Shown here piece by piece: positions 7,524 through 40,482 of a stretch of 64,000 nt of DNA. The notes below the pieces were generated by a model, which did not search any database, was not told the origin of the DNA, and worked only from the letters and a program-made list of their open reading frames with translations. The DNA comes from Deltaproteobacteria bacterium (GTDB taxonomy: Bacteria; Desulfobacterota; Binatia; Binatales; Binataceae). Made by a program: the position numbers and the translations under genes. The stretch covers positions 9,954 to 73,953 of the forward strand of contig JAKAVN010000001.1 in assembly GCA_021827495.1 (NCBI GenBank), written 5' to 3'. Each line of letters starts with the position of its first letter. The stretch's first letter is position 1.

Positions 7524-8401
7524 TGGCAAGGCCGCAGCGGGTCGTCACTGATTCGATGATCGGGCTCAAGCTGCCCGACTTCGTGCGCCACTCCGATCGC
7601 GTGGCCACCGTGCTGGGCTATAACCCGGGCCCGTTCACCGGCCCGGGCACCAATACCTACATCGTCGGCGCGGGGCGCCGGCCGTTACTGCTCGACACCG
7701 GCGCCGGTGTGCCGCTATACGAGGAGTTGTTGCCGCACGCGCTTAGGGAAGTCAGTTCCAGCCGCGAGCTGGAGTGCGTCGTATGCACCCACGCGCACCC
7801 CGATCATATCGGCGGCGTGCGCCAGGTCCGTCGCCGCTTCGGTGAGCTGGCAGTGCTCAAGAAGCCGTGGCCGGGCAAGGACGAAGTCGCCGATGCGCCG
7901 ATCCGCGCGATCGACGACGGCGCGGTGGTCAGAGCCGAGGGCGCGACACTGCGCGCGATTTACACGCCGGGCCATGCCCCCGACCATCTTTGCTATTATC
8001 TCGAAGAGGAGAAGGCGCTGTTTACCGGCGACCTGGTGCTGGGGGCCGGAACCACCGTGATTCCTGACGACGCCGGCGACCTCGGGCAGTACATGGTTTC
8101 CCTGCACCGCCTTTTGGAACTCGATTTGGCGCTGATTTACCCGGCGCACGGCCCGGTGATCCGCAACCCGCGGCAGAAGATCGAGGAGTACATCGCGCAT
8201 CGCGAACTGCGCGAGCGCCAAGTGCTCGACGCGCTCGGCGGCGGTCCGCCGCTCGAGCCGATGCAGATCGTCAAGAAGATTTACCTCGACGTGCCCGAGT
8301 ATCTGCACGCCGCCGCCGCCAATTCGGTACGCGCGCATCTGAAGAAGCTTCGAAACGAGGGGCGCGTGGTGGAGCATGACAGCCGCTGGAGTCTCAACTA
8401 G
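7520..8401 (+). CDS. MBL-fold metallo-hydrolase (LACTB2-like)
   Basis: HAHPDHIGG metal-binding motif and a later TPGHAPDH. The ATGA start overlaps the coaX stop. Confidence 0.8.
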
Positions 8402-9422
8402 CCGGCCGCGCCCGCCGCTGGCCCGCCGCGCCGCGATCTGCTCGGCGTTCGCGGCGGGGCTCGCGCTGTGTGCGATGAGCCCGGCGTTTGCTCAGGACGG
8501 GCCTCCGGTCGGCCCGTCCGCCACGGTCGGCGCCTTGGGCGCGGCGCCGACCGCGGCCGCCGACGAGGAGGCGGCCGCGCTGCTGGTCGCCGCACCGGTG
8601 CCGCCATCGGCTGCTTCGGCCACCCCGACTCCGTCGGCGTCGGCTGGCGCCTCGGCACCCAGCGGCGGAAGCACGACTATTCTCATCAACGACGGTCCGC
8701 CGGGTTCGACGCCTTCCGGATGGTCTCCGGTTGCGGCGGGCGCGTCCGCATCCGGCGGGCCCGAGGAAGCTCCCGCGCCGGCGGCAGCCGATGCGCCGGT
8801 GGTTGAAGAGCGGCGGGAAGATCCCGGCGAAGCTCCGCCGGGAACCACCATCATTCCCTCCGCCGCGCAGCAGCAGGCGGCCCCACCCGGAACAGGGGTT
8901 CCTGGCGATAACCCGCAGGTCGTCAACTATGAAGCGAACCAGCAGATGCCGCTCAATGAGCCGCAGCTTCACAGTCTGCAGGAGTTCATGAACGAGGGCG
9001 TCAACGCCTCGCCGCTGGGTGTCGAATTGGAGGAGGGCGCGCGGCGGGGGAAAAACGGCCGCGAGGTCGACGGCCTGCTGGTCGTCGCGCTGGAGCCCGG
9101 AGGGCCGGCCGAGCGGGCGGGTGTACAGGCCGGCCATCGCGCCGCCCACGACGTGCTCGAGGGCGCGGCGGTGGCGGCTTCGCTGGTGTTTCCGCCGGCG
9201 GTTCTGGCCGTGCCGGTGATCGAAACCATTCAGCTTGGTGAGAACTACGACCTGATCATCGGAGTCGACGGCAACCGGGTCACCAACTTCATGGATTTCC
9301 AGGACCAGTTGCGCGAGGCGCAGCCGGGCGAGACCGTCTACCTCAACATCCTGCGCAGCGGCCAGCGTCTCCAGGTGCCGGTGGAGATGCCGCCGCCGGA
9401 CGCCGGGCAGCTATATCCATAG
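8376..9422 (+). CDS. Secreted PDZ-domain protein with a long Ala/Pro/Ser-rich N-terminal region
   Basis: Signal-peptide-like N-terminus (AICSAFAAGLALCAMSPAFAQD) and a C-terminal PDZ-like segment (LLVVALEPGGPAERAGVQAGH...IIGVDGNRVTNFMDFQ). Confidence 0.55.
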   Translation: MTAAGVSTSRPRPPLARRAAICSAFAAGLALCAMSPAFAQDGPPVGPSATVGALGAAPTAAADEEAAALLVAAPVPPSAASATPTPSASAGASAPSGGSTTILINDGPPGSTPSGWSPVAAGASASGGPEEAPAPAAADAPVVEERREDPGEAPPGTTIIPSAAQQQAAPPGTGVPGDNPQVVNYEANQQMPLNEPQLHSLQEFMNEGVNASPLGVELEEGARRGKNGREVDGLLVVALEPGGPAERAGVQAGHRAAHDVLEGAAVAASLVFPPAVLAVPVIETIQLGENYDLIIGVDGNRVTNFMDFQDQLREAQPGETVYLNILRSGQRLQVPVEMPPPDAGQLYP

Positions 9423-11576: not shown

Positions 11577-12869
11577 CTAGCGGAAGTCCTGGCCGAGGCC
11601 GCCAGGCGTCGAGTACTTCTTGAGATCGTGGAACTTCTTGGGCACCTGCTGGTTGATGTAGGCTCCATGCCCGGCGCGGTCAATGCTGCCATAGAAAGTG
11701 GCGTGATGGCTCTGGAGGTCCCAGAAAATGTCGATCTGGGTGCCACTGAAGTCCTGCACGCCGAGCCCCGGCACCGCCCGCGCCATCGGCAGCACCGCGA
11801 AGCTCTTCCACAACTTCAGCCGCGTGTCGTAGAGGTCCTCCCACAGCGGCACGTAACTGTTCTTGTCGGCGTAGATGATGCGCTTGCCGAAGCAGTAGCC
11901 GGCGGTGAGCGACGGCACTCTGCGCACGTCGATGGCGTAAACGTCACGCAGTTCCCATGTGCCCCACGACGGCTTGGGCCATCCGAGCGGCATCGTGTAC
12001 TGCTCGGGGAATTTGCCGGCGTTGCCGTTGTAATTGATGAGCGCGAGAATCCTGCGCTCGCCGAGCAACTGCGAGGTGAACTCGGTGATGTTGCCGTCGA
12101 AGCCGTAGCGCAGGTCGTCGCGCGTCATGTCGCTTTTGCCCTGCAGGCAGCGCACGGCCCCGTTGAGTTGCGACGTGCGGCGCAGCGAAGGGATGAACTC
12201 GTAGACGTCCTGCGGGCGGGTGAGGTCCGAGTAGATGATGGTCAGATGCGCGCTGTACTTGGCCTCTTCGGGCTCCTCGACCATGCTCCATGCGGTGTAG
12301 TCCATGTCGCCCGCCCCCGGCGTGACCATCGGATATCCGGGATCGACGATGTGCTTGAGCGCGCGGTCGACGAAAATGTCGCGGCCGCAGGAGATGTTGC
12401 CGAACGGGTTCATGGCGCAGTCGGAACTGATGTTGGCCGGCGTCGACACGACCAGATGGGGCATGTAGCGGAACCACAGGTCGGCCAGGATCTCCCATCC
12501 GGCGTGCGTCCCGGCGGGATGGGGAAACGGAATGCCGGCGGTGTAGCCGGCCAGGTTGAAACTGCCGTTGGGCAGCGGCAACATCCTGACCTGCGCCGAA
12601 TATTTCTCGGTCGCGTCTAGGTAGGGCTTGGGCAGCGGATGGTTGCGGGTGGGGCCGACGACGATCTGAGCGTCAGCGGGCATCTTCCATGGATACTGGC
12701 CGGAAAACAGCGCGGCCATGCTGTCGGGCATGAACTGCTGATAGCTATGCCAGTTCTGCGTGGTGATCACGGTGCCGGGCGGAATCGGCGCGTCGGCTGC
12801 GAACACCACCGGCACAATCGCCACGGACATAAGGAGAGCGATCAAGGCAATTCTACGTACCAGAGCCAT
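11577..12869 (-). CDS. Secreted hypothetical protein (DUF1329-like?)
   Basis: Clean 430-aa ORF with an N-terminal signal peptide (MALVRRIALIALLMSVAIVPVVFAADAP). It is aromatic-rich; the family assignment is tentative. Confidence 0.55.
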   Translation of the reverse strand: MALVRRIALIALLMSVAIVPVVFAADAPIPPGTVITTQNWHSYQQFMPDSMAALFSGQYPWKMPADAQIVVGPTRNHPLPKPYLDATEKYSAQVRMLPLPNGSFNLAGYTAGIPFPHPAGTHAGWEILADLWFRYMPHLVVSTPANISSDCAMNPFGNISCGRDIFVDRALKHIVDPGYPMVTPGAGDMDYTAWSMVEEPEEAKYSAHLTIIYSDLTRPQDVYEFIPSLRRTSQLNGAVRCLQGKSDMTRDDLRYGFDGNITEFTSQLLGERRILALINYNGNAGKFPEQYTMPLGWPKPSWGTWELRDVYAIDVRRVPSLTAGYCFGKRIIYADKNSYVPLWEDLYDTRLKLWKSFAVLPMARAVPGLGVQDFSGTQIDIFWDLQSHHATFYGSIDRAGHGAYINQQVPKKFHDLKKYSTPGGLGQDFR

Positions 12870-13131
12870 CGTTCAATCCTTTCGGCCCTTAGCACAGGGC
12901 CGCGTGCTCTCCCTTGAAAGCAGATAAGGCACAGCCGGATCAAGGGAAAAGCAAATGATTGCTCAGCCTGAACAGACGAATATCGTATGCGCAGGCGCTT
13001 TGTGAAACGGCAGCATCGTGGAGTGTGCGCTTGACCGGGGCGAAATGGCCCGCCGCAAAAGCGCGGGGCGGGAGCGGGCCACCGGCCCGTTACCGCCCCG
13101 TGGGCGCCACGAACTCGCCGCGCGGGGCGGC

Positions 13132-14457
13132 TCAGTAGTAGTCGACCGGATCGATCTGGCGCTTGGCGCCGTACCAGAACAGCATGTTCTCGGTCAGCCC
13201 TTGCCAGGTGAACTTGCCCGGCGGCATCAGCAGGCGCTTGAACATCGACTTGAACGAGTAGAACTCCTTGGTGCAGCGCCACACGCCCTCTTCGACCTGC
13301 TGCGGCGAGAGCTTGTTGGGCACGAACATGCAGCGGAAGTTGTTGGTGTACATGTCGGCGTCGGGGATGATGACGCGGCCCTCCTGCTCGAGCTTCGTGC
13401 GCATCGGCGTGCCCCTGCGCGGCGTGACCGTGTTGAAGAACGCTTCGGGCGCCTTGACCTCGTGCAGGAAGGCGAGGGTGTCGTCGAAGATCTGCGGCTG
13501 GTCTTCTTCGAGGCCGAACAGGAAGTTGAGCGAGTAATAAATCCCGTAGTGCTCCAGTCGCTTGAGCAGCTTCTTGTAGTCCTTGGCGTGGTTCTGAATC
13601 TTGCTCATCGACAGCAGGCTGTCCTGGCTGATCGATTCGACGCCGATGTTGACGTGGAACACGCCCGCCTTGGCCGCCAGCTCGAGCAGGTCCTCGTCAT
13701 GGTTGGAGTTGATGGTCCACAGGCAGGAGAAGCGGATGTTGAGCGGGATCAGCGCGCGGAACAGCTCGCGCGCGAACTTGTGCTTGCCGGTGATTTGGTC
13801 GTCGATGAACTGGAAGCGGCGGAAGCCGGTGACCTCGATGACCTGCTTGATTTCCTCGATGATGTCCTCAATCGGGCGGGTGCGATAGCTGCCATCATAG
13901 AAGACCGGGATTTCGCAAAACGAGCAGCGGTACGGGCATCCACGGCTCGCCTGCACGGGCATCGCCTTGAACAGGTAACGGTTGAGCTTGAGCAGCTCGT
14001 GGCGCGGGCGCGGCAGGTTCTTCAGATCGTGCAGCTTGGCGGACTTGTAAGTGCGCTTGAGCTTGCCGTCCTGCCAGTCGCGCAGCAGCGGCTCCCATAC
14101 CAGGTCGGCCTCGCCCTGGACCACCGCGTCGGCGTGCTTGAGCGCCTCCTCGGTCTGGAGCGTGGCATGGAACCCGCCCATCACCACCGGGATGCCGCGC
14201 TTGCGGAACTCGTCGCCGAGCTGGTAGGCGCGCAGCGAGGCGCCGATGGTGGTGGTCATTCCGACCAGGTCCCAGCCGGCGTCGAAATCGATCTCCTCCA
14301 GCCGCTCGTCGCACAGCGTCACGTCGAAGTCGGGCGGCGTCAACCCCGCCAGCAGCGGGATCATCAAACCCATGATGAGCCGCCAACGCGTCTTATGAGG
14401 CGTGCCGTCCAGATGGATCGTCGTCGGTTGGATCAGCAGGATCCGCGGTTTCTTCAC
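13132..14457 (-). CDS. B12-binding domain radical SAM protein (probable methyltransferase class B)
   Basis: N-terminal cobalamin-binding-like domain (PRILLIQP...) and a CxxxCxxC radical SAM cluster motif (GCPYRCSFCEI). The likely start is GTG at 14457 with a GGGAGG RBS; the ATG at 14538 would overlap the upstream gene by 58 nt. Confidence 0.8.
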   Translation of the reverse strand: MKKPRILLIQPTTIHLDGTPHKTRWRLIMGLMIPLLAGLTPPDFDVTLCDERLEEIDFDAGWDLVGMTTTIGASLRAYQLGDEFRKRGIPVVMGGFHATLQTEEALKHADAVVQGEADLVWEPLLRDWQDGKLKRTYKSAKLHDLKNLPRPRHELLKLNRYLFKAMPVQASRGCPYRCSFCEIPVFYDGSYRTRPIEDIIEEIKQVIEVTGFRRFQFIDDQITGKHKFARELFRALIPLNIRFSCLWTINSNHDEDLLELAAKAGVFHVNIGVESISQDSLLSMSKIQNHAKDYKKLLKRLEHYGIYYSLNFLFGLEEDQPQIFDDTLAFLHEVKAPEAFFNTVTPRRGTPMRTKLEQEGRVIIPDADMYTNNFRCMFVPNKLSPQQVEEGVWRCTKEFYSFKSMFKRLLMPPGKFTWQGLTENMLFWYGAKRQIDPVDYY

Positions 14458-14480
14458 ACTGCCTCCCGGCGGCGCCGCGC

Positions 14481-15644
14481 TTAGGCGGGCCGCTCTTGAA
14501 TCCCGTTCCGCCCGTGCCCCTTCGCGGTCATCCACCACAGCACCAAGGCAAAGACGTAAGTGCCAAAGGCCGTTCCCCAGGCGAAATAGTAAACCCTGTC
14601 GAACAGCGCCAGCACGACCAGCAGGTAGGCGAAGTCACGGCCGCTCACCCGCTCAACCTGCGCGATAAACCGCTCGGTCTGTTCGCCGTTGACGCGAGTC
14701 GCACGCCAGGTCGTGAGCGCACACAGTCCAAAACCAACCAACAGAATGGCGAGCAGGTAGATGTAGGCCCGGCTGCTGCTCGCCCGATAGCATCCGGCCA
14801 TGATGCCGGCGAAGAGCGCGACATGCACCAGGTTGTCGGTGAAAACGTCCAGCCGCGCGCCCCATCGCGACTCAGCCATCTTGAGCCGCGCCAGCTCGCC
14901 GTCGACGCCATCGAGGGTCACCGAGACCAGGAACATCAGGGCGGCGGCCAGGCGCGGCCAATAGCCCGCAAAGCTGAACAGCCACGCGCTCAGCAATCCC
15001 AGCGCGGTATTGACGAGCGTCACCTGGTTGGGTGTGATCGCGGTGCGTGCGAGGCGATAGCTGATTCGCCACGACAGCCGCCGGTCCACCCAGCGCGCCA
15101 TCAGCGCGTCCTTGTCGGCGCTCTCGCGGCGCAGCTCGCGCGCCAGCCTGAGTTCGGCCTCGCGCACATCCTCGGCCCGTCCGTCGAGCGCAAAGGGCAA
15201 CTGGCCGCTTGGCGCGAGCCGCGTTGCCGGGCCGCCGGAGCCATCGAGCAGGCGGCCGAGTGGTCCCGCCGCGACGCTGCCGCGGCGCGCGAGGTCGGTG
15301 CTCTCGACGCTGACGACCCCGCCGGGCCGTGCGGCATGGCTATCGAGCAGGCCGCGCAACTGCGAGGCCGCCAGCACCAGGTTGCCCCTAAACGCGACAC
15401 AGGGCGCGTCGGCCGGCATCTGTTCGAGGACCTGGGCAAACGAGCCGACGAAGTTCACCTCGGGATGGTCGCGGAACGAGCCCAACGAGGCGCGCAGGCC
15501 GCCGCGCTCGGCCTCGCTCGCCTCGATAAAGAACCGCTTCACTCCCGCGCGTTGGCAAATAAGCATCAGGCGCTCGATCAGTGATCGCCCGAAGATCGTG
15601 TTGCCCGCACGGCCCGAAGTGTTGATTAGCGCTGTGTCAACCAA
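14481..15644 (-). CDS. IPCT/DIPPS-like bifunctional protein: N-terminal nucleotidyltransferase-like domain fused to a CDP-alcohol phosphatidyltransferase domain
   Basis: C-terminal half has the CDP-OH transferase motif DGxxAR...G...D...D (LDGVDGELARLKMAESRWGARLDVFTDNLVHV) and multiple TMs. The linker (RWVDRRLSWRISYRLARTAITPNQVTL) resembles archaeal IPCT/DIPPS. The N-terminal ALINTSGRAGNT aligns to the GxGTRL signature but is degenerate. The TTG start is uncertain. Confidence 0.7.
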   Translation of the reverse strand: MVDTALINTSGRAGNTIFGRSLIERLMLICQRAGVKRFFIEASEAERGGLRASLGSFRDHPEVNFVGSFAQVLEQMPADAPCVAFRGNLVLAASQLRGLLDSHAARPGGVVSVESTDLARRGSVAAGPLGRLLDGSGGPATRLAPSGQLPFALDGRAEDVREAELRLARELRRESADKDALMARWVDRRLSWRISYRLARTAITPNQVTLVNTALGLLSAWLFSFAGYWPRLAAALMFLVSVTLDGVDGELARLKMAESRWGARLDVFTDNLVHVALFAGIMAGCYRASSSRAYIYLLAILLVGFGLCALTTWRATRVNGEQTERFIAQVERVSGRDFAYLLVVLALFDRVYYFAWGTAFGTYVFALVLWWMTAKGHGRNGIQERPA

Positions 15645-15646
15645 GG

Positions 15647-15670
15647 AAAGCCTTATTGAATAAAGGCTTT
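15647..15670. promoter_or_regulatory. Palindrome AAAGCCTT-N8-AAGGCTTT in the AT-rich divergent promoter region between the IPCT/DIPPS-like gene and the HAD gene
   Basis: An 8-bp perfect inverted repeat read directly. The surrounding 15645-15782 is ~45% GC against ~67% for the window. Confidence 0.3.
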
Positions 15671-15782
15671 TAGACTAATCGCAGGGCGGAGTCAATGTAC
15701 TGACCGTGCGGTTTGTCTACCTGTTCGTCGACCCTCCATCCCCGCCTGTTCATAACACTTAACTTTTTCGTAACTCCGCTCG

Positions 15783-16592
15783 TTGAGTACTTTGCCATCT
15801 TATTTGTGGAGGCACATAGCGAGGGCTGCTAGACTGGCGCCTGTGGCCAGTCCTGCGCGAGCGATCTTATTCGACTTCGGCGGCACACTCGACCATCCAC
15901 ACCATTGGCTGGACCGTTTCGTGCGCCATTACCGTGCGGCAGGCATGCAGCTCAGCCGTAGCGAGCTGGACGCCGCCTATTCGCACGCGACCCGCACCGC
16001 TTACGAGGCCGGCGAAGAAGTCCATCGCCACAATCTGCACGAGCTTATTCGTTATTTGGTCGCCCATCAGTTCAACTATCTCCATCGCCACGGCCCCGAC
16101 AACGTGCGCGAGCATCTCGCGGGCCTCGGCGACCAGCGCCATCGCTTGGCCGAGCGCATTACCGCCGGCTTCGCCGAGGAGTCGGCCCAAGGACTGGCAC
16201 GCAGCCGCGCGCTCCTCAAGGAACTGTCCCGCGATTTCAAGCTCGGCGTGGTCTCCAACTTTTATGGCAACCTGCAGGTCGTCCTGTTCGAGGCCGGCAT
16301 CCGCGAGTTGCTCCAGGTCGCGATCGACTCCAAGCACCTGCGCGTCTTCAAACCCGACGAGCGGATCTTCACCGCCGCGCTCAAGGTGCTTGACCTGCCG
16401 CACAACCAGGTGGCGATGGTGGGGGACTCGCTGCACAAGGATTGCGCACCCGCGCGCAAGCTCGGCATGCGTTCGATCTGGCTGCGCGGGCATCACGCCG
16501 GACCCGGCGAGCATCCGCAGGCGCGCGCGGCGGCCGCGCTCGCCGACCATACGATCGATTCGCTCGATGAGTTGAAGGAACTCACATGGTAG
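15783..16592 (+). CDS. HAD-superfamily hydrolase (motif I variant DFGGT)
   Basis: ILFDFGGTL motif I, the VVSNF motif II region and a KPDERIF...GDS motif III/IV region. Confidence 0.7.
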   Translation: MSTLPSYLWRHIARAARLAPVASPARAILFDFGGTLDHPHHWLDRFVRHYRAAGMQLSRSELDAAYSHATRTAYEAGEEVHRHNLHELIRYLVAHQFNYLHRHGPDNVREHLAGLGDQRHRLAERITAGFAEESAQGLARSRALLKELSRDFKLGVVSNFYGNLQVVLFEAGIRELLQVAIDSKHLRVFKPDERIFTAALKVLDLPHNQVAMVGDSLHKDCAPARKLGMRSIWLRGHHAGPGEHPQARAAAALADHTIDSLDELKELTW

Positions 16593-17335
16593 ACGGGCTC
16601 CGCGGCGCGATTATCGCGGCCGGCCGGGGCGAGCGCCTGCGCGGCGCGGTGGCTGATCTTCCCAAGCCGCTGGTCGAGCTCGGCGGCGAGCCGATGCTTG
16701 TGCGACAGGCGCGGATAATGCGTGAGGCGGGTGCGGAGACCGTCGTGGCGCTGGTCAATTCCGAGACTGCGAGGCTCATCGCGAGCCGCGCGGTCCGGAT
16801 TGCGTCGTGGATCAAACTCCGGGTGCGCGATACGCCGAGTTCGATGGAATCACTGCTTAGCTTGGGCGAAGACCTGCGCGGCGCCGGGCATTTTCTGCTC
16901 GCCACGGTCGACGCGGTGGTCGAGGCGGCTGAGCTGCGCCGTTTCGCCGGGCGCGCGCTGGAGCTGGCCGGCGGCGCCCCTCCACGCTTCGACGGCGCGC
17001 TCGCGGTGGTGCGATGGCGCGGCGACCAGCGGCCGCTGTTCGCCGAGATCAGGCCGGACGGCGCGATCGCCGCGCTCGGCGGGCGGCCGAGCGCGATGGT
17101 CACGGCGGGCTTCTATTGGCTGCCCGCGGCGATTTTCGATTTGGCCTCGCGGGCGCGCGCCGCGCACCTTGACGCGATGCGCAAGCTGCTCGCGATGGCG
17201 GTCGCAAGCGGGATGCGGCTCGGGGCGATCGAACTCGAGGCGACGATCGACGTCGATGAGTCGGCCGACTTGGCCGCCGCGCGCGCGCTGGTCGCCGGAG
17301 CGCCGCCGCGCAGCCCGGGCGGGGGCGGTAAGTGA
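16586..17335 (+). CDS. Nucleotidyltransferase (MobA-like/sugar-phosphate NTP-transferase family)
   Basis: AIIAAGRGERL (GxGxRL) signature followed by KPLVELGG. It overlaps the HAD stop. Confidence 0.7.
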   Translation: MVDGLRGAIIAAGRGERLRGAVADLPKPLVELGGEPMLVRQARIMREAGAETVVALVNSETARLIASRAVRIASWIKLRVRDTPSSMESLLSLGEDLRGAGHFLLATVDAVVEAAELRRFAGRALELAGGAPPRFDGALAVVRWRGDQRPLFAEIRPDGAIAALGGRPSAMVTAGFYWLPAAIFDLASRARAAHLDAMRKLLAMAVASGMRLGAIELEATIDVDESADLAAARALVAGAPPRSPGGGGK

Positions 17336-18171
17336 AGATGCGTGTGCTGGGGATTTACCGCGAGACCGAGTTTTCTCCGGGCAAGGTCGCGCACGATGCC
17401 GCAATCCTCGACGCGGTGCTGGCTGAGCTCAAGCGCCATGGCGCGGAGGTCTCGGTCATCAGCGCCGCACGCTTTGTCGGTGATGCGCCGGCCAGCGCGG
17501 ACCTGGTGCTCGCGATGTGCCAGGGTGAGCGCGCACTCGGCCGCCTGGTGGCGCTCGAGCAGCAGGGCGCGATCGCGGTCAACTCCGCGCTCGCGATTCG
17601 CAACTGCTACCGCGACCTCCTCTGCGCCGGCCTGATCCATGCCGGGGTTCCCGTTCCGGCCGGTGCGCTGGTCAGGACCGGCGCCCGCCCGCCGGACTTG
17701 ACCCCGCTCGGCGTGCTGGATCTTGACGCGCCGATGTTCATCAAGCGCGGCGACCTGCATGCACTTGCGCCCGACGACGTGCAGCGGGTAGAAAGCCGTG
17801 GCGCGCTGCGCGCGGCGCTGGCCCGGCTGGCGCAGCGCGCAGTGCCGGTAGCCTACGTGCAGCAGGCGGTCGACGGCAGGGTGGTGAAGTTTTACGGCGT
17901 CAGCGGCGGCGAGTACTTTACCGCGCTGGCCGAAGAAGGATCGATATCCGAGCGCGTGCAGTTCGACTTGGCCCGGAGCGCCGCGGCTGCGGCCGCCACG
18001 CTGGGCCTCGAGGCGTGGGGTGGCGATGCGGTAATCGATGGCGAGCGGTTTATGATCATTGATTTCAACGACTGGCCCAGCTTTAGCCGGGTGCGCGAGA
18101 GCGCCGCCCGCGCGATCGCGCGGCGCTGCCTGATGCTCGCGCGCCGGCCGCGCCAAGGCTCTGAGTTATAG
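17332..18171 (+). CDS. ATP-grasp domain protein
   Basis: Size and motif pattern (FIKRGD..., VVKFYGV, a C-terminal IIDFNDWPS-like Mg/ATP region) are consistent with the ATP-grasp fold. Function is not assignable. Confidence 0.5.
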   Translation: MKMRVLGIYRETEFSPGKVAHDAAILDAVLAELKRHGAEVSVISAARFVGDAPASADLVLAMCQGERALGRLVALEQQGAIAVNSALAIRNCYRDLLCAGLIHAGVPVPAGALVRTGARPPDLTPLGVLDLDAPMFIKRGDLHALAPDDVQRVESRGALRAALARLAQRAVPVAYVQQAVDGRVVKFYGVSGGEYFTALAEEGSISERVQFDLARSAAAAAATLGLEAWGGDAVIDGERFMIIDFNDWPSFSRVRESAARAIARRCLMLARRPRQGSEL

Positions 18172-18201: not shown

Positions 18202-19704
18202 ATGAGCAAACCGCACCCGCCGGCGCTTAGGACAGCCGGCGAATTGAAGATCACCAACGGATCCGGAACCGCGAACGGACCAGCTATTTCCAAAGGGCCC
18301 GCGCCCGCCAATGGGGCTGTCACCGCGAGTGAACCGCGGCCTCCTGGCATGCCCGGCCTCCAGCCCAACATCACCACTGCGGTTCCCGGGCCAAAGTCGC
18401 GCGCGCTGTTCGCTGAGGAGCAGAGCCATATCGCGCCGGGCCGCCAGCGTATCTCGCTGCTCGCCAGCCTCGCCTTCGATCATGGCGAGGGCGCCACGCT
18501 GACTGACGTTGATGGCAACGTGTTCGTCGACTTCTTCGCCGGCGTCGGGGTCGCGAGCCTCGGCCACGCGCATCCGGCTCTCGTGCGGGCGCTCGCGCAC
18601 CAAGCCTCGCGGCTCATCGTGGGCACCTTCGCCACGCCCGAGCGCGCGGAGGCCTTCCGGCTGCTCGGCGAAGCCGCGCCCGCGGGCCTTGAGCGTGCGC
18701 ATCTGTACAGCGGCGGCGCGGAGGCGGTCGAGGCGGCGCTCAGGCTCGCGCGCTCGAAAACCAAGCGCCACGAGGTGCTGAGCTTCTGGGGCGGCTTCCA
18801 CGGCAAGACCGGCGGTGTGATTGGGCTCATCGGCGACGAATCCAAGCAGGGCTACGGCCCGTTGCCGGGCGGCCAGTACATGGTGCCGTACGCCGACTGC
18901 TACCGCTGCCCATTCAAAATGGAATATCCGCGGTGCGGGATGTACTGCGTCGATTTCGCGCGCCAGCAGCTCAAGCGCAGCTCCGCAGGCGCGCTTGCGG
19001 CCGTGGTGGCCGAGCCGATGCAGGGAACGGCGGGCAACGTGATTCCGCCCGACGATTATCTTCCCGCGGTCCAGCAAGTCGCGCGCGAGCACGGCGCAAT
19101 GCTCATCGCGGACGAAATGATCACCGGCTTCGGCCGCACCGGGCGCATGTGGGGAATCGAGCACAGCGGCGTCGCACCCGACATCATGACGGTCGGCAAG
19201 GGGATGGGCTCGGGCTTTCCGGTCTCCGGCGTGCTGCTCAGCGAGGAACTGGGACGGAGCGAGCCCTTTGGCAAACCCAGTGCGTCGTCGTCGAGCTACG
19301 GCGGTAATCCGCTGGCCGCAGTCGCGGTCGCCGAGACGCTGCGCACGATCAAGCGCGAAGGGCTGGTCGAAAATTCGGCCGCCGTCGGCGCGTTTTTGCT
19401 CGAGCGCCTGATGCGTCTGCGGGAGAAATACGAATTCGTCGGCGACGTGCGCGGCAAGGGGCTGCTGATCGGCGTCGACCTGGTGCGCGATCGCAAGAGC
19501 AGAGAGATGCTCGGCCGTTCGATAACCGAGGCCATCTTCAAGGAGGCGCTCAAGCGCGGCCTGTTGGTGATGGGTTATTTTCCGCGCATGCGGATCAATC
19601 CACCGCTGGTCATCACGCGCGAGCAGGCCGCGGCGGGTGCGGAAATTCTCGACGAGGTCTTCGCCCACGTCCGCGACCATCTCGACTGGCGCAACGCCCC
19701 GTAG
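18202..19704 (+). CDS. Class-III (omega/GSA-type) PLP-dependent aminotransferase with a ~70-aa low-complexity N-terminal extension
   Basis: GHAHPALV, the FWGGFHGKT glycine-rich region, DEMITGFGRTG, and the pyridoxal lysine in MTVGKGMGSG. Confidence 0.8.
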   Translation: MSKPHPPALRTAGELKITNGSGTANGPAISKGPAPANGAVTASEPRPPGMPGLQPNITTAVPGPKSRALFAEEQSHIAPGRQRISLLASLAFDHGEGATLTDVDGNVFVDFFAGVGVASLGHAHPALVRALAHQASRLIVGTFATPERAEAFRLLGEAAPAGLERAHLYSGGAEAVEAALRLARSKTKRHEVLSFWGGFHGKTGGVIGLIGDESKQGYGPLPGGQYMVPYADCYRCPFKMEYPRCGMYCVDFARQQLKRSSAGALAAVVAEPMQGTAGNVIPPDDYLPAVQQVAREHGAMLIADEMITGFGRTGRMWGIEHSGVAPDIMTVGKGMGSGFPVSGVLLSEELGRSEPFGKPSASSSSYGGNPLAAVAVAETLRTIKREGLVENSAAVGAFLLERLMRLREKYEFVGDVRGKGLLIGVDLVRDRKSREMLGRSITEAIFKEALKRGLLVMGYFPRMRINPPLVITREQAAAGAEILDEVFAHVRDHLDWRNAP

Positions 19705-19761: not shown

Positions 19762-20238
19762 ATGGCTGGAGCTGGCGGAAATCGGGGACTGTTCTGCGAC
19801 TTGGCCGGCACGTTGGTGAAAATGGATGAGACCCGCCAGCTTGCGCTCGGCCCCGACGGAAGAATCGTAGTCGAGCTGCTGCCCGGTGTGGCCGAGAGGC
19901 TCCGCCCGATACGCGATCATCTAATCTTCGTCGTCACCAACCAGGCCGGGATAGCGCGCGGGCGGCTGCGCCTGGAACAGGTCGAAGCGGCGATCGCCGA
20001 GGTCGCCCACCAGCTCGGCGACATCCTGACTGGATGGCGGATTTGTCCGCACGACGACGCCGACCGATGCGCATGCCGCAAGCCCAGGGGCGGGATGCTG
20101 ACCGAGCTGGGCGCGGCCTACGGCGTGGATATGGCGGGATCGACCATGGTCGGTGATCAGGAAATCGACGCCGCGGCGGCGCGCGCGGCGGGCGTCGGCC
20201 GTTTCATCTGGGCGCACGACTTCTTCGGCTGGCAATGA
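19762..20238 (+). CDS. HAD-IIIA family hydrolase (GmhB / histidinol-phosphatase-like), motif I variant DLAGT
   Basis: LFCDLAGTL motif I, VVTNQ motif II and a CxH...CxCRKP zinc motif (CPHDDADRCACRKPRGGML) typical of GmhB-type enzymes. Confidence 0.65.
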   Translation: MAGAGGNRGLFCDLAGTLVKMDETRQLALGPDGRIVVELLPGVAERLRPIRDHLIFVVTNQAGIARGRLRLEQVEAAIAEVAHQLGDILTGWRICPHDDADRCACRKPRGGMLTELGAAYGVDMAGSTMVGDQEIDAAAARAAGVGRFIWAHDFFGWQ

Positions 20239-25091: not shown

Positions 25092-25281
25092 GCTCCGCCG
25101 GGCGGTTGCGGGCCGCGGCGCCGAGGCGACCCGTCCGGGGGCGTTTGCACGCGGGGACGCAAACGATTTAAAGAAAGTACGTCATCCATTATTGGAATAA
25201 CCCGCGCCGTGGAGCCGGCGCCGCGCGCGGAGCGGGCAAATTGCGCGGACGCCGCTGAAAAAAAGGAGAGACTGCAAGTTC

Positions 25282-26487
25282 ATGGCTTCAATCGCACCGC
25301 TTAGCGGGATCAAAGTTGTCGATCTCACCAAGCTCGCTCCCGGACCGCATTGCACAATGATCCTTGGCGACCTTGGCGCCGACATCATCAAGGTCGAGGA
25401 ACCCGGCGCGCCCACCGGCCGGCGCGCCGAGCAGGCCGCCGCCGCGGGCAAGACGCAGCGGCGCGGAACCGGGCTGGGCCTGCACAACGCGCTTGGGCGT
25501 AACAAGAAATCGATCGGACTTAATCTCAAGAGCGGGCCGGGACGCGAAATTTTCTTGCGCATGACGCAGCGCGCCGACGTGGTGGTCGAGGAGTTCCGCC
25601 CCGGCGTCGCCAAGCGGCTGGGGATCGACTACCCGATGCTGTCGGCGCGCAATCCGCGGCTGGTGTATTGCGCGGTGACTGGCTTCGGCCAGACCGGACC
25701 GTACCGCGACTACGTCGGTCACGACCTCAACTACATAGCGCAGGGCGGCGCGCTCTCGATGATTGGGCGCAAGGACCAGCCGCCGACGATTCCGCAGAAC
25801 CTGCTCGCCGATTACGCGGGCGGCGGCATGCATGCGGCGATCGGAGTGCTCGCCGCACTGCTCGCGCGCCATCAGACCGGCCGCGGACAGTACGTGGATA
25901 TCGCGATGCTGGACGGGACGATGCTGCTGATCGCGCAGGCGCTCTCGAACCACTTCGGCAAGGGCTGGATTCCCCGCCGCGGCGCAACCACGCTCGACGG
26001 CTCGGCACCCTACTACAACCTGTACCTGACCAAGGACGAGAAATATATCACGATCGGCTCCGTGGAGCCGTGGTTCTACGCCAACCTGTGCCGCGCGCTC
26101 GGCGCCGAGGAATACATCCAGGACGAGTACAACAGCGCCCGCTTCGACGAGATCAAGGCGCGCTTCGCCGAAATCTTCAAGACCAAGACGCGCGAGGAGT
26201 GGTGGGAGATACTTACGCGCAACGACATCTGCGTGGGCCGGATGCTGACGCTCGACGAACTTGAGCACGACCCGCAAATCCGCGCGCGCAACATGATCGT
26301 CGAGGTCGAGGCGCCAACCGGCGAGAAGGTCAAGCAGGTCGGCATTTCGGTCAAGCTCTCCGAGACGCCCGGCTCGATCCGCTCGCTGGCGCCCAGGCTC
26401 GGCCAGCATACCGATGAAATCCTGGCCGATTTGGGCTACGGCCAGCACGACATCGAGCGCTGGCGCTCCGAAGGCGCGATCCGGTAG
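25282..26487 (+). CDS. CoA-transferase family III (CaiB/BaiF) protein
   Basis: GIKVVDLT...[20 protein letters not shown]-terminus and a conserved Asp-containing core (VVEEFRPG). It carries an unusual ~45-aa Arg/Ala/Gly-rich insertion after IKVEEPG. Confidence 0.8.
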
Positions 26488-26633
26488 GCGAACCCCCGGT
26501 AGGCGAACCATAGACTGGAGCATAAGCTGGCCGGTGCATCGGCCGACGCTCATGTGCGGAGTGCCGGCGCTTTGCGGACGCGGAGTTGGCCCGCTGGCGC
26601 GGACTGGCTGGTTAAGGGTCGAGGAAAGTGGCG

Positions 26634-27965
26634 ATGGCCGAGTTACCCGAGTTACCATTGACCTTCATTCGCGGACCCTACGAGCCCCTGCTGATCGACC
26701 ATGCCGAGGGCGCCTGGCTCTATACCGCCGACGGCAGGAAAATCCTTGACGCGGCCGCCGGCGCGGTGGTGACCAATATCGGCCAGGGCCGCGAGGAAAT
26801 CGCGCAACTGGCCGCCAACGAGATGCGCCGCGCCAACTACGTCGTCCCGATCTGGTCGACGCCGCAGCGCCAGCGGCTGGTCAAGCGGCTCGCGCGATGG
26901 ACCGCACCGGGCCTCACCCGGTTCTTCTTCACCTCGGGCGGTTCGGAGGCGGTCGAAGCGGCGCTCAAGTTCGCGCTGATGTATCACAAGGTCCACGGCC
27001 GCCCGCGGCGCACGAAAATCATCGCGCGCGAGGCCTCCTATCACGGCAACACCATCGCGGCGCTGTCGGCCGGCGGCAGCCTGCGCCGCGCCGACTACGA
27101 ACAGGTGCTGTTGGATTGGCCGAAAATCAAACCGTCGTATTGTTACCGCTGTCCGTGGGGCAAGACTTACCCCGGATGCGATATCGATTGCGCCAATGCG
27201 CTCGAGCAAGAGATCAACCGCCACGGCGAGGATTCGATCGCACTGTTTATCGCCGAGCCGATGATGGGCTCGGCAGGCGGCGCGGTACCGCCGGTCAAGG
27301 AGTACTGGCCGCGGCTGGCGGAAATCTGCCAGCGCCACGGCGTGCTGCTGATCGCCGACGAAGTGATGACCGGCTTCGGCCGCACCGGCCGGCGTTTCGC
27401 CGTCGACCATTGGAATGTCATCCCCGACATCCTGATCGGCGGCAAGGGGCTGACCGGCGGCTACCTGCCGATGGGGATGATCGCGGTTAAGGAGCGGCTG
27501 GTCGAGCAGTGCGAAGAGCAGGGCGCCGAGTTCATGTTCTACACCTACAGCGCGCATCCGACCGCCTGCGCGGTGGCCGACCGCGTGCTCGAGATCATGG
27601 AGCGCGAGCATCTGGTCGAGCGCGCGGCCGAGATGGGCGCGCGGCTCGGGGCGCAGCTCAAGGAGGAGCTAGCGGGCCATCCGATGGCCGGCGACATCCG
27701 CGGCGCCGGAATGTTCTGGGGCGTCGAGCTGGTGCGCGATCGCGCCTCGCGCGCGCCGTATCCGCCGGCGCTGAAGGTTGCGAGCAGGGTGGTCGCGGCG
27801 GGACTCAAGCGCGATCTGTTCGTCTATCCGGCGAGCGGGATGGCGCGGCCGGGCGGCGATGCGGTGATGGTCACGCCACCGTTCGTGATCGGCAATGACG
27901 AGATCGAATACCTCGTGAGCCGGCTGCGCGCCACGCTCGACGACGTCCATCCGAATCTGCAGTAG
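26634..27965 (+). CDS. Class-III PLP-dependent aminotransferase
   Basis: FFTSGGSEAVEAALK, DEVMTGFGRTG and the pyridoxal lysine in GGKGLTGG. ATG at 26634 has a better RBS spacing than GTG at 26628. Confidence 0.8.
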   Translation: MAELPELPLTFIRGPYEPLLIDHAEGAWLYTADGRKILDAAAGAVVTNIGQGREEIAQLAANEMRRANYVVPIWSTPQRQRLVKRLARWTAPGLTRFFFTSGGSEAVEAALKFALMYHKVHGRPRRTKIIAREASYHGNTIAALSAGGSLRRADYEQVLLDWPKIKPSYCYRCPWGKTYPGCDIDCANALEQEINRHGEDSIALFIAEPMMGSAGGAVPPVKEYWPRLAEICQRHGVLLIADEVMTGFGRTGRRFAVDHWNVIPDILIGGKGLTGGYLPMGMIAVKERLVEQCEEQGAEFMFYTYSAHPTACAVADRVLEIMEREHLVERAAEMGARLGAQLKEELAGHPMAGDIRGAGMFWGVELVRDRASRAPYPPALKVASRVVAAGLKRDLFVYPASGMARPGGDAVMVTPPFVIGNDEIEYLVSRLRATLDDVHPNLQ

Positions 27966-28129
27966 AGCCGGCAGTTGCTTCACGGCTGATTACGAATCTC
28001 GCATTTGCTTGCGGCCAGCCTCTTGCGGCTGTGCCTGCTTTCCATTGGATTATAGGGCGGGTTCCGGGCGCGCCGCTTGTACGGACGGACGCGCAGCGGT
28101 CAGGGCCGTGGACGGCCCAAGGAGACGTT

Positions 28130-28999
28130 ATGGCGGATATCATCGGTCCCACGTCAAATTATTTTTATTCTCAGCGGCTGAAGCTCCATTACGTCGACTG
28201 GGGCAACGCGGACAAACCGATGGCGATCATGCTCCATGGCGGCCGCGACCATTGCCGCAACTGGGACTGGGTCGCGTTCGAGTTGCGCCAACACTTCCAC
28301 CTGGTCGCGCCCGATCTGCGCGGGCACGGCGACTCCGACTGGGCGATCGGCGGCAGCTACGCGATGATCGACCATGTGGTCGACTTGAACCAGCTCATGA
28401 ACGCGATCGCGGCCGGGCCGGTCACGCTCATCGGCCACTCGCTGGGCGCGGGCGTTGCGCTGCAGGCGGCCGGGGTCTTTCCCGGCGCGGTCAAGGCGCT
28501 GGTCGCGATTGAAGGATTGGGGCCGCCCTCCGCGATGCTGCGCGAGACGCCGGCCTACGAGCGGATGGAGAACTGGGTGGGCGACATGCGCGCGCTCGCC
28601 CAGCGCAAGCCGCGCGAGTACCCGAACCTCGAGGAGGCGCTGGAGCGGATGCGCGCCGCCAACTTGCATCTCAGCCCCGCGCAGGCGCGCCATCTGACCG
28701 TCCACGGCGTGCGGCGCAACGAAAACGGCACCTACTCGTGGAAGTTCGACAACTACACGCGCGCCCATTCGCCCTATCTGTTCAACCTCAAGGACGCGAC
28801 CGAAATCTGGAGCCGCATTCGCTGCCCCACGCTGCTGGTGCGCGGCGACGAGTCGTGGGCTGGCGACTGGGAGCGCGACGGACGTCTGGACTCCTTCCAC
28901 ACCGCCGAGCTGGTGACGATTCGCAACGCCGGCCACTGGGTCCATCACGACCAGCTCGCGGAGTTTCTCGCCGTCGTGCGCCGCTTTCTGGGTGTGTAG
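28130..28999 (+). CDS. Alpha/beta-fold hydrolase
   Basis: HGG...GHGDS motif and the nucleophile elbow GHSLGAG. AAGGAG RBS before the ATG at 28130. Confidence 0.75.
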   Translation: MADIIGPTSNYFYSQRLKLHYVDWGNADKPMAIMLHGGRDHCRNWDWVAFELRQHFHLVAPDLRGHGDSDWAIGGSYAMIDHVVDLNQLMNAIAAGPVTLIGHSLGAGVALQAAGVFPGAVKALVAIEGLGPPSAMLRETPAYERMENWVGDMRALAQRKPREYPNLEEALERMRAANLHLSPAQARHLTVHGVRRNENGTYSWKFDNYTRAHSPYLFNLKDATEIWSRIRCPTLLVRGDESWAGDWERDGRLDSFHTAELVTIRNAGHWVHHDQLAEFLAVVRRFLGV

Positions 29000-34271: not shown

Positions 34272-34288
34272 CGCGGAGGTCGCGGTAA

Positions 34289-35948: not shown

Positions 35949-36178
35949 CGCGGCGCTCCTCGATCAGGATTTGGCGCAAGGTTTTTTGACAGAGGATTCG
36001 GCATAGGCTTGGCGCGGTGCCGCGGCTGACGGCATTGATCAGTATAATAACCCGGCCTGCGGATGCGGCAAACGTCGGGCGAAGCCTTGGCGTCGCGGGC
36101 GCGCGCGGGTTGCCCCCTTCGGCGCAAACAGTGCATGATTCGCTGTTGCAGGAAGGCGTTAATCACCAGGAGGTCGCG

Positions 36179-40417: not shown

Positions 40418-40482
40418 CGCGCCTCGCAGCCGAAAGGGCGGTTCAACAAAAATTCCTCAATAAAAATCCGCTTGGCCCGGGA

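Follow-up and report, generated by a model that had tools for sequence, protein, structure and literature searches.

A Binataceae radical SAM gene of a possibly hopanoid-associated family and its co-transcribed candidate pathway for hopanoid head groups

Gene organisation of the locus

We analysed a 64-kb stretch of DNA (64,000 nucleotides, hereafter the window) from the genome of a soil bacterium, Candidatus Binataceae, in which a radical SAM gene that we call rSAM-W is surrounded by the housekeeping genes panB, panC, coaX and ffh. This gene shares the minus strand with an upstream CDP-alcohol phosphotransferase gene, from which a plus-strand operon diverges, giving the following features.

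13132-14457, minus strand: radical SAM gene rSAM-W (441 aa), identified by Pfam, NCBIfam, alignments, an AF2 model and public gene calls
14458-14480, minus strand: 23-nt spacer with the Shine-Dalgarno site GGGAGG (14467-14462), read from the sequence and from stop/start distances in 75 related loci
14481-15644, minus strand: IPCT/DIPPS-like CDP-alcohol phosphotransferase gene (387 aa), identified by Pfam, NCBIfam, motif and an AF2 model
15645-15782, no strand: divergent intergenic region, presumed to carry the promoters of both operons, from the ORF map
15783-16592, plus strand: HAD-IA phosphatase gene, a conserved partner, identified by Pfam and NCBIfam
16586-17335, plus strand: NTP_transf_3 nucleotidyltransferase gene (249 aa; PF12804, 42.9 bits), candidate for the cytidylyltransferase that makes the CDP-alcohol
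17332-18171, plus strand: ATP-grasp-like gene (279 aa), identified with an orthologue profile
18202-19704, plus strand: class-III aminotransferase gene (500 aa; Pfam Aminotran_3, 322 bits)
19762-20238, plus strand: small HAD-IIIA-like phosphatase gene (158 aa; Pfam), fifth gene of the plus-strand operon

The rSAM-W reading frame begins with the GTG at 14457-14455, separated by a 4-nt spacer from GGGAGG. This start, which the original prediction had chosen together with its Shine-Dalgarno site, is supported because 50 homologues (433-447 aa) start their alignment at exactly this GTG and because public assemblies call the same product: the identical 441-aa protein is annotated in GCA_027321845.1 and GCA_027403275.1, and the former also carries the identical 387-aa transferase neighbour. 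The longer, 468-codon frame (13132-14538), with a 58-nt overlap into the upstream gene, was ruled out by the same alignment and gene calls, and long antisense frames (for instance 13018-14484 on the plus strand) were taken as high-GC artefacts from GC3.

rSAM-W lies 23 nt downstream of the transferase, which stops at the TAA at 14483-14481, and no promoter-like or terminator-like site was found between the two genes on the minus strand. In the closest relatives (loci L007-L013) the transferase frame is eight codons longer and its TGA overlaps the start of the radical SAM gene, forming a GTGA overlap; in the window the transferase ends at a premature TAA, and the spacer represents the relatives' last eight codons, with the in-frame TGA at 14456-14454. 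At L032, the two genes are joined by an ATGA stop/start overlap. The transferase lies directly upstream of the radical SAM gene, on the same strand, in 112 of the 119 Binatia-clade loci counted (those with enough upstream DNA), and the pair is again adjacent in a second clade (L091), next to an hpnN-like gene. Consistently with the predicted gene pair and operon link, the transferase and rSAM-W form a real two-gene operon that was ancestrally translationally coupled, and their coupling is more than chance.

Two further neighbours were set aside. The nucleotidyltransferase gene overlapping the radical SAM start in L135 belongs to the general sugar-phosphate nucleotidyltransferase family PF00483 and, lacking homology to the transferase fusion, was given no weight. 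The DUF1329 gene downstream of rSAM-W (11577-12869) is found at this site in no lineage other than that of the window and is therefore not part of the system.

On the plus strand, the HAD-IA phosphatase is called from a later start in public annotation (223 aa, L176) and has a median identity of 48% across loci; no consensus sigma-70 site was found in the intergenic region before it. The NTP_transf_3 protein weakly matches the IPCT part of IPCT/DIPPS. The ATP-grasp-like protein has no Pfam family, and a profile of eight orthologues gave weak matches to RimK (E 0.002) and to inositol-trisphosphate 5/6-kinase (E 0.008), with the L173 orthologue matching rimK_fam (E 5e-7); a ligase and a polyol-phosphate kinase are both conceivable. 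The best conserved partner is the class-III aminotransferase, which is 57% identical to the copy in a Syntrophobacterales cluster described below and presumably shares its enzyme class with HpnO, the hopanoid aminotransferase. The gene at the HAD-IIIA position in L032 has a histidinol-phosphatase/GmhB-type domain (98.5 bits, cut-off 84).

Domains, folds and family tests

The rSAM-W protein opens with a Rossmann-like domain that resembles B12-binding domains, continues with a radical SAM core and has a weakly DUF4070-like region at the C terminus. Its core matches PF04055 (Radical_SAM) at 67 bits (cut-off 29.5) and the cluster motif CxxxCxxC (C174, C178 and C181) is invariant in 51 aligned sequences, which together place it in the radical SAM superfamily. 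The Pfam B12-binding model (PF02310) covers no more than residues 51-119 and, at 29.5 bits, falls short of its gathering score (32.1). In the AF2 model (pLDDT 89.6), the Rossmann-like N-domain superposes on TsrM, TokK and OxsB, and best on AprD4; the overall architecture is common to the class-B enzymes TsrM, MgmA, CysS and TokK. No cobalamin riboswitch was found anywhere in the 64-kb window, which we treat as neutral evidence.

None of the curated NCBIfam equivalog models scored reached its cut-off for rSAM-W (HpnJ 79/578, HpnR 48.7/650, BchE 99.9/481, PhpK 88/600, AprD4 53.6/500; bits/cut-off), no methylase family model came near its own, and no HpnP model was among the matches. Judged by the models of HpnJ, HpnR, BchE, PhpK and AprD4, rSAM-W is predicted to represent an uncharacterised family. 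The class-B methyltransferase identity originally proposed was thus not borne out: with a B12 domain below threshold and, as nearest solved structure, AprD4, which is a dehydratase, neither cobalamin use nor methylation is established, and "cobalamin-dependent" would be a domain-level label for this protein rather than an observation.

In the transferase, an N-terminal domain of nucleotidyltransferase fold is followed by a membrane CDP-alcohol phosphotransferase domain. The latter matches CDP-OH_P_transf (PF01066) at 47 bits (cut-off 22) and has an intact motif (DGVDGELAR-x8-G-x3-D-x3-D; sequence DGVDGELARLKMAESRWGARLDVFTD), the catalytic pattern D-x2-D-G-x2-A-R-x8-G-x3-D-x3-D being kept in about 70 of 75 related transferase loci. 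By motif, PF01066 and fold, this protein is a member of the CDP-alcohol phosphotransferase family. The best PDB fold matches of its AF2 model (pLDDT 80.6) are 4mnd, AF2299 and PIP synthases, the entries matched being 4mnd, 4o6n and 5d91; 4mnd, the Archaeoglobus fulgidus IPCT-DIPPS, comes first, in agreement with the IPCT/DIPPS-like nature originally assigned to this neighbour. By NCBIfam, it is closest to IPCT/DIPPS (NF041135, 81.5 bits against 580, with only the transferase half aligning), archaetidylinositol-phosphate synthase (56 against 180) and PIP synthase (53 against 170), all far under the equivalog cut-offs; the first of these scores argues against membership of the bifunctional IPCT/DIPPS family. 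Despite its fold, the N-domain has no Pfam nucleotidyltransferase match and, by inspection, no G-x-G-x-R loop, and it looks inactive.

Distribution and conservation

The radical SAM protein is very strongly conserved, with a median identity to the window of 88% across Binatia, compared with 54% for the transferase, 75% for panB and 68% for panC; across phyla, the family keeps 52-58% identity and about 90 invariant residues. Binataceae sequences have been recovered from many soil and peat metagenomes. In homology searches, relatives of the transferase were confined to Binataceae-like and Syntrophobacteraceae-like sequences, and the radical SAM family was broader. Orthologues at 41-57% identity in Geotalea (WP_011937318 in G. 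uraniireducens Rf4), in a Desulfobacca-like clade and in other lineages have no CDP-alcohol transferase neighbour; the gene stands alone in Geotalea and the Desulfobacca-like clade (17 loci) and is monocistronic with variable neighbours in these and in L088 and L150. Moreover, Binataceae that have lost the transferase or carry a degraded one (L005/L078, L076, L081, L084, L151) keep the radical SAM protein at 83-85% identity. Since orthologues occur without the transferase, the radical SAM protein does not depend on it, contrary to the tie to a CDP-alcohol partner that had been proposed. An apparent neighbour family spanning eight loci in all-against-all clustering was spurious, being produced by ABC-ATPase and AMP-binding domains.

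Hopanoid gene neighbourhoods

Within the 64-kb window itself there is no hpn gene. Elsewhere, hopanoid markers adjoin the radical SAM gene in three of its five clades (scores below are bits/cut-off). In L160, shc (799/431), hpnA (488/368), hpnH (427/225), a PMT_2 glycosyltransferase gene, a rhomboid gene and the radical SAM gene lie on one strand. In L089, hpnN (887/752) is divergent from hpnM (184/160), which is followed by an MlaA-like gene and then the radical SAM gene; an hpnN/hpnM/mlaA-like transport trio has been proposed as hopanoid-specific (bioRxiv 10.1101/2025.07.29.667474). In L005, L076 and L084, shc, a polyprenyl synthase gene and hpnH are found within 2-8 kb, and a PMT_2-type membrane glycosyltransferase gene is one or two genes away in L087, L092, L160 and L169. 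Within 10-kb flanks of 64 Binatia-clade loci, hpnH was present in 20 and a Gfo/Idh/MocA gene in 27. Two of the five clades, as well as the Geotalea locus inside a third, had no hopanoid neighbour.

The partner cluster is also found beside hopanoid genes. In L032, genes for HAD, NTP_transf_3, ATP-grasp, aminotransferase, HAD-IIIA, F420-LLM oxidoreductase, Gfo/Idh/MocA and TetR proteins and hpnH (380/225) are contiguous on one strand; because the TetR gene separates hpnH from the cluster, this adjacency in Binataceae could be simple family-level synteny. In Syntrophobacterales, an orthologous partner cluster (35-57% identity) is headed by hpnJ (477 bits on a 333-aa fragment) and interleaved with hpnL-like and hpnN-like genes, to which L172 adds hpnI (328/310) and an hpnM-like gene; in L170-L173, none of the hpnN-like, hpnM-like and hpnL-like genes reaches the cut-off of its family. 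A 488-aa B12-type radical SAM protein encoded beside this cluster was considered as an rSAM-W orthologue and rejected, being 27% identical and identifiable as HpnJ, and was kept as context.

Placement beside hopanoid genes therefore recurs in independent lineages, both for the radical SAM gene (L160, L089, L091 and the 20 Binatia-clade loci) and for the partner cluster (L032, L170-L175). The original prediction had set its own reading against assignment to a subgroup whose substrate is known and unrelated, HpnP, a hopanoid methylase, being one example. One half of that contrary case fell away, rSAM-W being neither HpnR nor HpnJ, and the other half stands, in that the family and its partner cluster recur inside hopanoid loci.

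Discussion

Because the radical SAM family and the transferase cluster both occur again and again inside loci for hopanoid biosynthesis or transport, we infer that rSAM-W probably acts on a bacteriohopanepolyol. The gene neighbourhoods suggest that rSAM-W and the transferase may represent a so far undescribed extension of the hopanoid pathway rather than a methylation step on a CMP-linked intermediate like that of fosfomycin biosynthesis. Our preferred interpretation, to which we give an even chance, is that rSAM-W represents an uncharacterised radical SAM family associated with hopanoids, and that its gene is transcribed together with a candidate pathway for a hopanoid head group. The transferase would cooperate with the products of the divergent operon (a cytidylyltransferase, an ATP-grasp enzyme, a class-III aminotransferase and two phosphatases) in assembling an amino-polyol or cyclitol group linked through a phosphodiester, the cluster supplying one lineage-specific version of the head group. 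As for the radical SAM enzyme, it would tailor the bacteriohopanepolyol by radical chemistry that needs no oxygen, the polar side chain or the head group being the probable site. A tailoring step on the phosphodiester-linked head group is possible, since the transferase-radical SAM adjacency recurs in the second clade.

A bolder version of this proposal, which we consider doubtful, is that the IPCT/DIPPS-like transferase of Binataceae and of some Syntrophobacterales joins an amino-polyol or cyclitol head group to bacteriohopanepolyols through a phosphodiester. The product would be the first phospho-hopanoid, and the radical SAM protein would join HpnJ, HpnP and HpnR as a fourth radical SAM enzyme of this architecture that tailors hopanoids; its oxygen-independent change to the side chain or head group could be, for instance, an HpnJ-like rearrangement, an AprD4-like deoxygenation or a BchE-like hydroxylation. 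No phospho-linked hopanoid is known to have been described. This counts against our preferred interpretation as well, as do the lack of hpn genes in the window, the clades without hopanoid neighbours, the low scores of the hpnN-like, hpnM-like and hpnL-like genes and the possible synteny of hpnH in Binataceae. Our literature searches found no link between hopanoids and CDP-alcohols or a phospho-linkage, and nothing relevant on the orthologue accessions, on CDP-alcohol with radical SAM and lipid, or on hopanoid with Geobacter and B12-binding; for Binatota with radical SAM, they returned only biosynthetic gene clusters of Antarctic soil bacteria.

The housekeeping setting of the window raises the alternative that rSAM-W is a modification enzyme acting on protein, RNA or a cofactor, untied to either the transferase or hopanoids, with its adjacencies due to lineage synteny and operon hitch-hiking. 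Its conservation, above that of panB and panC, and its monocistronic occurrence with variable neighbours in several lineages are in line with such a role, which we nevertheless regard as unlikely: hopanoid genes directly adjoin the radical SAM gene in three separate clades, a PMT_2-type glycosyltransferase gene lies near it in four loci, and the envelope-lipid associations are too frequent for chance, by a rough, uncomputed estimate that only a few per cent of genes lie within 5 kb of an hpn gene.

The original prediction itself, that the enzyme would be a cobalamin-dependent class-B methyltransferase tailoring a CDP-activated or phosphodiester intermediate by analogy with Fom3 on cytidylyl-hydroxyethylphosphonate, now appears quite unlikely. 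It drew strength from the tight operon link with its ancestral GTGA overlap, from the adjacency in nearly all Binatia-clade loci and again in a separate clade, and from the architecture common to class-B enzymes; yet most orthologues outside Binatia have no CDP-alcohol transferase neighbour, the radical SAM gene persists where the transferase or its catalytic motif is lost, and the transferase has a narrower distribution than the radical SAM family. The sub-threshold B12 domain, a nearest solved relative that is a non-methylating dehydratase and methylase models that all score far below their cut-offs argue in the same direction, and no specific link to Fom3-type chemistry emerged, the PhpK P-methylase model being the nearest one compared.

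That the product of the cluster is a soluble compatible solute resembling di-inositol phosphate, or else an ordinary glycerophospholipid of the inositol type, with coincidental hopanoid genes and the radical SAM protein as a passenger, would fit the closest relatives of the transferase and the cytidylyltransferase and phosphatase logic of the IPCT/DIPPS and PIP synthase/phosphatase pathways, but is very improbable given transferase scores far below the equivalog cut-offs, no inositol-1-phosphate synthase gene seen in the cluster, an aminotransferase, an ATP-grasp enzyme and, in relatives, Gfo/Idh/MocA and F420 oxidoreductases that are foreign to those pathways, and the location of the cluster amid hpnJ, hpnI, hpnL-like and hpnN-like genes in a second phylum.

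Hopanoids and fossil hopanes are major biomarkers, and several side-chain modifications have no known enzymes. If our preferred interpretation is right, unassigned hopanoid structures would gain concrete candidate genes both from a conserved, multi-phylum, hopanoid-associated radical SAM family and from a head-group pathway built on a CDP-alcohol transferase, and CDP-alcohol chemistry would be extended from glycerolipids and solutes to triterpenoids. The family also calls for caution with domain-only annotation, being easily mislabelled as BchE, YgiQ or "B12-dependent methyltransferase"; automatic pipelines could write bchE for it.

Comparison with known systems

HpnJ (TIGR03471) forms the bacteriohopanetetrol cyclitol ether from a glucosaminyl derivative. 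It resembles rSAM-W in combining a B12-binding-like domain with a radical SAM core and in its hopanoid loci, and true HpnJ heads the Syntrophobacterales partner cluster; the two are, however, only 25-29% identical, and rSAM-W is a paralogous family. HpnR and HpnP, the hopanoid C-3 and C-2 methylases, are class-B radical SAM enzymes that share with rSAM-W the superfamily, the architecture, a weak DUF4070 tail and the link to hopanoids, but are longer (about 490-520 aa against 441 aa). A recent survey described unassigned "HpnP-like" proteins that carry the same domain trio.

The nearest solved relative of rSAM-W, by profile (E 4.5e-17) and by fold (TM 0.78 over the full length), is AprD4 (6fd2), which is similar in size but 20% identical and belongs to aminoglycoside clusters, not lipid loci. 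AprD4 is a radical SAM 1,2-diol dehydratase of apramycin biosynthesis and has an amino-sugar as substrate. BchE is the top NCBIfam match and has the same architecture, but its score is far under the cut-off and there are no bacteriochlorophyll genes nearby. Class-B methyltransferases of the Fom3/PhpK type share the general domain order, and the cytidylylated substrate of Fom3 parallels the CDP-alcohol context; however, no phosphonate genes such as PEP mutase were seen, and the PhpK score of rSAM-W is low (88 against 600).

The transferase, finally, matches IPCT/DIPPS of A. fulgidus (4mnd) and AF2299 in fold over its full length, with the same cytoplasmic nucleotidyltransferase fold joined to a six-helix CDP-alcohol transferase domain. 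It differs from IPCT/DIPPS in being 18% identical and in that the window has a separate NTP_transf_3 gene instead.

Junction and start codon of the radical SAM gene

The radical SAM gene lies on the minus strand, directly downstream of the gene for a CDP-alcohol phosphotransferase, in DNA of 66% G+C. Read full-length, its open reading frame (13132..14538, 468 codons) overlaps the upstream frame (14481..15644) by 58 nt. The junction, on the minus strand 5'->3', reads ...CCC GCC TAA gcgcggcgccgccGGGAGGcagtGTG AAG AAA CCG, with the following features:

14483-14481, minus strand: transferase stop TAA (sequence read)
14467-14462, minus strand: GGGAGG (sequence read)
14457, minus strand: radical SAM start GTG (sequence read and homologue alignment)

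The alignments of 50 homologues (433-447 aa) begin at this GTG and none begins further upstream; the resulting 441-aa product is called identically in two NCBI assemblies, one of which also has the identical 387-aa neighbour. The original prediction that the two genes overlap or abut, the GTG and its GGGAGG removing the 58-nt overlap, was thus borne out. The transferase frame of the closest relatives (radical SAM identity 94-97%) is 8 codons longer and its TGA overlaps the start codon as GTGA; the frame in the window (junction at 14454-14483) stops 8 codons short of the ancestral TGA, at a premature TAA that is a recent truncation relative to these loci and turns the overlap into a 23-nt spacer. 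The missing tail, ARRRREAV, would have formed a cytoplasmic C-terminus. Other relatives have ATGA-type stop/start overlaps or spacers of 10-65 nt. These overlaps and spacers, together with the homologue-supported GTG, indicate that the coupling is ancestral. On the minus strand, which carries both genes, the interval separating them has no promoter-like or terminator-like site, and hairpins follow the radical SAM stop.

Long open reading frames opposite real genes are common in the window (e.g. 13018-14484, plus strand, 488 aa, opposite the radical SAM gene); these lack the genic GC3 pattern and were rejected as high-G+C artefacts. Other features of the window were:

8376-9422: PDZ-domain protein with a signal-like start and a long, Ala/Pro/Ser-rich low-complexity N-terminal half
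11577-12869, minus strand: DUF1329 (LolA-like) gene just downstream of the radical SAM gene, equipped with a promoter-like site of its own; found at this position in no lineage but that of the window (also in the related loci L176 and L177)
25201-28999 and 35990-37417: two family-III CoA-transferase genes
26616-27965: second class-III aminotransferase gene, after the first CoA-transferase gene, with an alpha/beta hydrolase gene
32649-35963, minus strand: Ser/Thr protein kinase gene with a zinc ribbon and an adjoining gene for a two-FHA-domain protein
37570-41442, minus strand: in a row, a PfkB kinase-SIS fusion, a weak DHDPS-like protein and a 319-aa protein without a Pfam family

Domain architecture of the two proteins

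Consistently with the predicted IPCT/DIPPS-like identity of the transferase, it carries PF01066 with an intact catalytic motif, and its model (pLDDT 80.6) matched 4mnd, the structure of an IPCT-DIPPS, across both domains, followed by AF2299 and PIP synthases. Its N-domain, modelled as a nucleotidyltransferase fold, had no family match and no G-x-G-x-R loop.

The radical SAM protein matched PF04055 at 67 bits, with the cluster motif C174/C178/C181 and a weak C-terminal DUF4070 tail, and its B12-binding match was sub-threshold (29.5 bits vs 32.1). The best structural match to its AF2 model (pLDDT 89.6) was AprD4 (TM 0.78, 20% identity), followed by TsrM, MgmA, CysS, MiaB, TokK and OxsB, and a profile search against PDB sequences gave the same order. 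These domain matches and model comparisons point to a "class-B-like" architecture. The originally proposed cobalamin use and methylation stay putative; the B12-binding score is sub-threshold, and the nearest solved relative, AprD4, is a dehydratase. None of the NCBIfam equivalogs came near its cut-off (score/cut-off: BchE 100/481, PhpK 88/600, HpnJ 79/578, HpnR 49/650, AprD4 54/500). Public names for the family are "YgiQ (UPF0313)" or a generic "B12-binding radical SAM protein", with BchE as best curated match, an annotation that could make pipelines misreport bacteriochlorophyll genes in Binatia.

Conservation of the pair and its partner cluster

Among 119 Binatia-clade loci (the subset of 133 with enough upstream DNA), 112 have the transferase directly upstream of the radical SAM gene. 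About 10 kb of DNA was available upstream in 64 loci, and 55 of these have the transferase plus the partner genes of the window's divergent plus-strand operon (HAD-IA, NTP_transf_3, ATP-grasp-like and class-III aminotransferase). In the window, as in the Binatia-clade locus L032, the aminotransferase gene is followed by one for a small HAD-IIIA phosphatase. Median identities to the window were 88% for the radical SAM protein, 54% for the transferase, 77% for the aminotransferase, 48-61% for the HAD, NTP_transf_3 and ATP-grasp genes, 75% for panB and 68% for panC.

The radical SAM protein is kept at 83-85% identity in four loci without the transferase (L076, L081, L084, L151), and to the same degree in L005 and L078, where the middle third of the transferase and its motif are gone. 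Orthologues outside Binatia share 41-57% identity and are stand-alone genes in Geotalea uraniireducens, in a Desulfobacca-like clade of 17 loci and in other lineages. Since the gene persists where the transferase is absent, decayed or not adjacent, it cannot depend on this transferase for its function. The L005/L078 lineage of Binataceae amounts to a natural decay experiment: the transferase homologue is cut to 316 aa with no catalytic motif (L005 9061-10011; L078 has the same arrangement), the NTP_transf_3 and aminotransferase genes are gone, the radical SAM gene, at 84% identity, is intact, with shc and hpnH at a distance of 4-8 kb.

A housekeeping enzyme with no tie to the transferase or to the hopanoid neighbours described below would account for a gene that is so strongly conserved and so often monocistronic; we consider this explanation unlikely.

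Hopanoid genes beside the radical SAM family and the transferase cluster

Of the five clades of the radical SAM family, three show an association with hopanoid genes. One strand of L160 carries shc, hpnA, hpnH (all exceeding equivalog cut-offs), a PMT_2 glycosyltransferase gene, a rhomboid gene and the radical SAM gene. At L089, hpnN is divergent from hpnM, an MlaA-like gene and the radical SAM gene, with hpnN and hpnM again exceeding cut-offs; the hpnN/hpnM/MlaA-like trio has been proposed as a hopanoid transport route (bioRxiv 10.1101/2025.07.29.667474). The distance to shc, to a gene for a polyprenyl synthase and to hpnH is 2-8 kb in L005, L076 and L084. Genes for PMT_2 (ArnT-like, GT-C) membrane glycosyltransferases lie at most two genes from the radical SAM orthologue in four loci of two clades:

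L087 4382-6517: PMT_2 gene
L092 5661-7574: PMT_2 gene
L160 5377-7086: PMT_2 gene
L169 10445-12244: PMT_2 gene (a GT2 gene is also present)

In L091 the radical SAM gene follows a transferase fusion that shares 40% identity with the transferase of the window, and the pair adjoins an hpnN-like gene and a gene for a second radical SAM protein of 324 aa. This recurrence of the adjacency speaks for the original model, a Fom3-like methyltransferase tailoring a CMP-linked or phosphodiester intermediate; however, the radical SAM family is more widely distributed than the transferase and is not demonstrably a methylase, and we regard that model as improbable.

The transferase cluster is itself hopanoid-associated in two phyla. 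L032 runs on an unbroken strand from the partner operon through genes for F420-type and Gfo/Idh/MocA oxidoreductases and a TetR gene to hpnH, and 20 of the 64 Binatia-clade loci have hpnH inside the 10-kb flank. Searching with the L091 fusion returned homologues named as Syntrophobacteraceae, whose loci hold orthologues of all five partner genes (35-57% identity) in the order hpnJ, HAD, NTP_transf_3, ATP-grasp, aminotransferase, Gfo/Idh/MocA, second CDP-alcohol transferase and hpnL-like; hpnN-like genes lie alongside, joined in L172 by hpnI and by one hpnM-like gene. A true hpnJ (L173 20233-21236, Syntrophobacterales) is the first gene of an operon with the HAD, NTP_transf_3, ATP-grasp and aminotransferase orthologues. 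The 64-kb window holds no hpn gene; its own lineage has lost the part of the arrangement that carries hpnH. The second small radical SAM gene, which the window lacks, repeatedly accompanies the transferase fusion in non-Binatia clusters; its product (about 300-324 aa) is distantly PqqE/MoaA-like and matches no equivalog:

L091 3131-4105: second small radical SAM gene
L173 11410-12384: second small radical SAM gene
L172 10238-11140: second small radical SAM gene

Proposed function

The window combines the bicistronic transferase-radical SAM operon with a divergent operon for a candidate cytidylyltransferase, an ATP-grasp enzyme (weakly like RimK and inositol-phosphate kinase), a class-III aminotransferase and two phosphatases. 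The cytidylyltransferase would form a CDP-alcohol, from which the IPCT/DIPPS-like enzyme would transfer the phospho-alcohol to an acceptor; the product might be trimmed by a phosphatase, receive an amine through the aminotransferase (relatives add a Gfo/Idh/MocA oxidoreductase) and be phosphorylated or acylated by the ATP-grasp enzyme. The hopanoid gene context makes a bacteriohopanepolyol head group a plausible acceptor or end product; a DIP-like solute or ordinary inositol lipid is a very improbable product.

Assignment of the radical SAM enzyme to hopanoids, for which all evidence is comparative, we hold to be evenly balanced. Which genes adjoin it depends on the clade: two clades have CDP-alcohol transferases, two (L087/L092 and L160/L169) have PMT_2 glycosyltransferases, and the remaining settings have transport genes or the core genes shc/hpnH. 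This variation fits an enzyme that would work on a polar side chain or head group installed by differing transferases. It may instead change the hopanoid ring system. Methylation, an HpnJ-like rearrangement, an AprD4-like dehydration and a BchE-like hydroxylation are candidate reactions, each by itself far from an even prospect.

The literature searched described neither this radical SAM family nor a hopanoid-linked CDP-alcohol transferase cluster, and a recent survey mentioned only unassigned "HpnP-like" proteins with the same domain trio. On comparative evidence, we rate the locus as a putative hpn tailoring locus with new enzymes, in which the radical SAM protein would be paralogous to HpnJ and HpnR, both hopanoid radical SAM enzymes, and would act on a hopanoid; the class-III aminotransferase would belong to the same enzyme class as the hopanoid aminotransferase HpnO.
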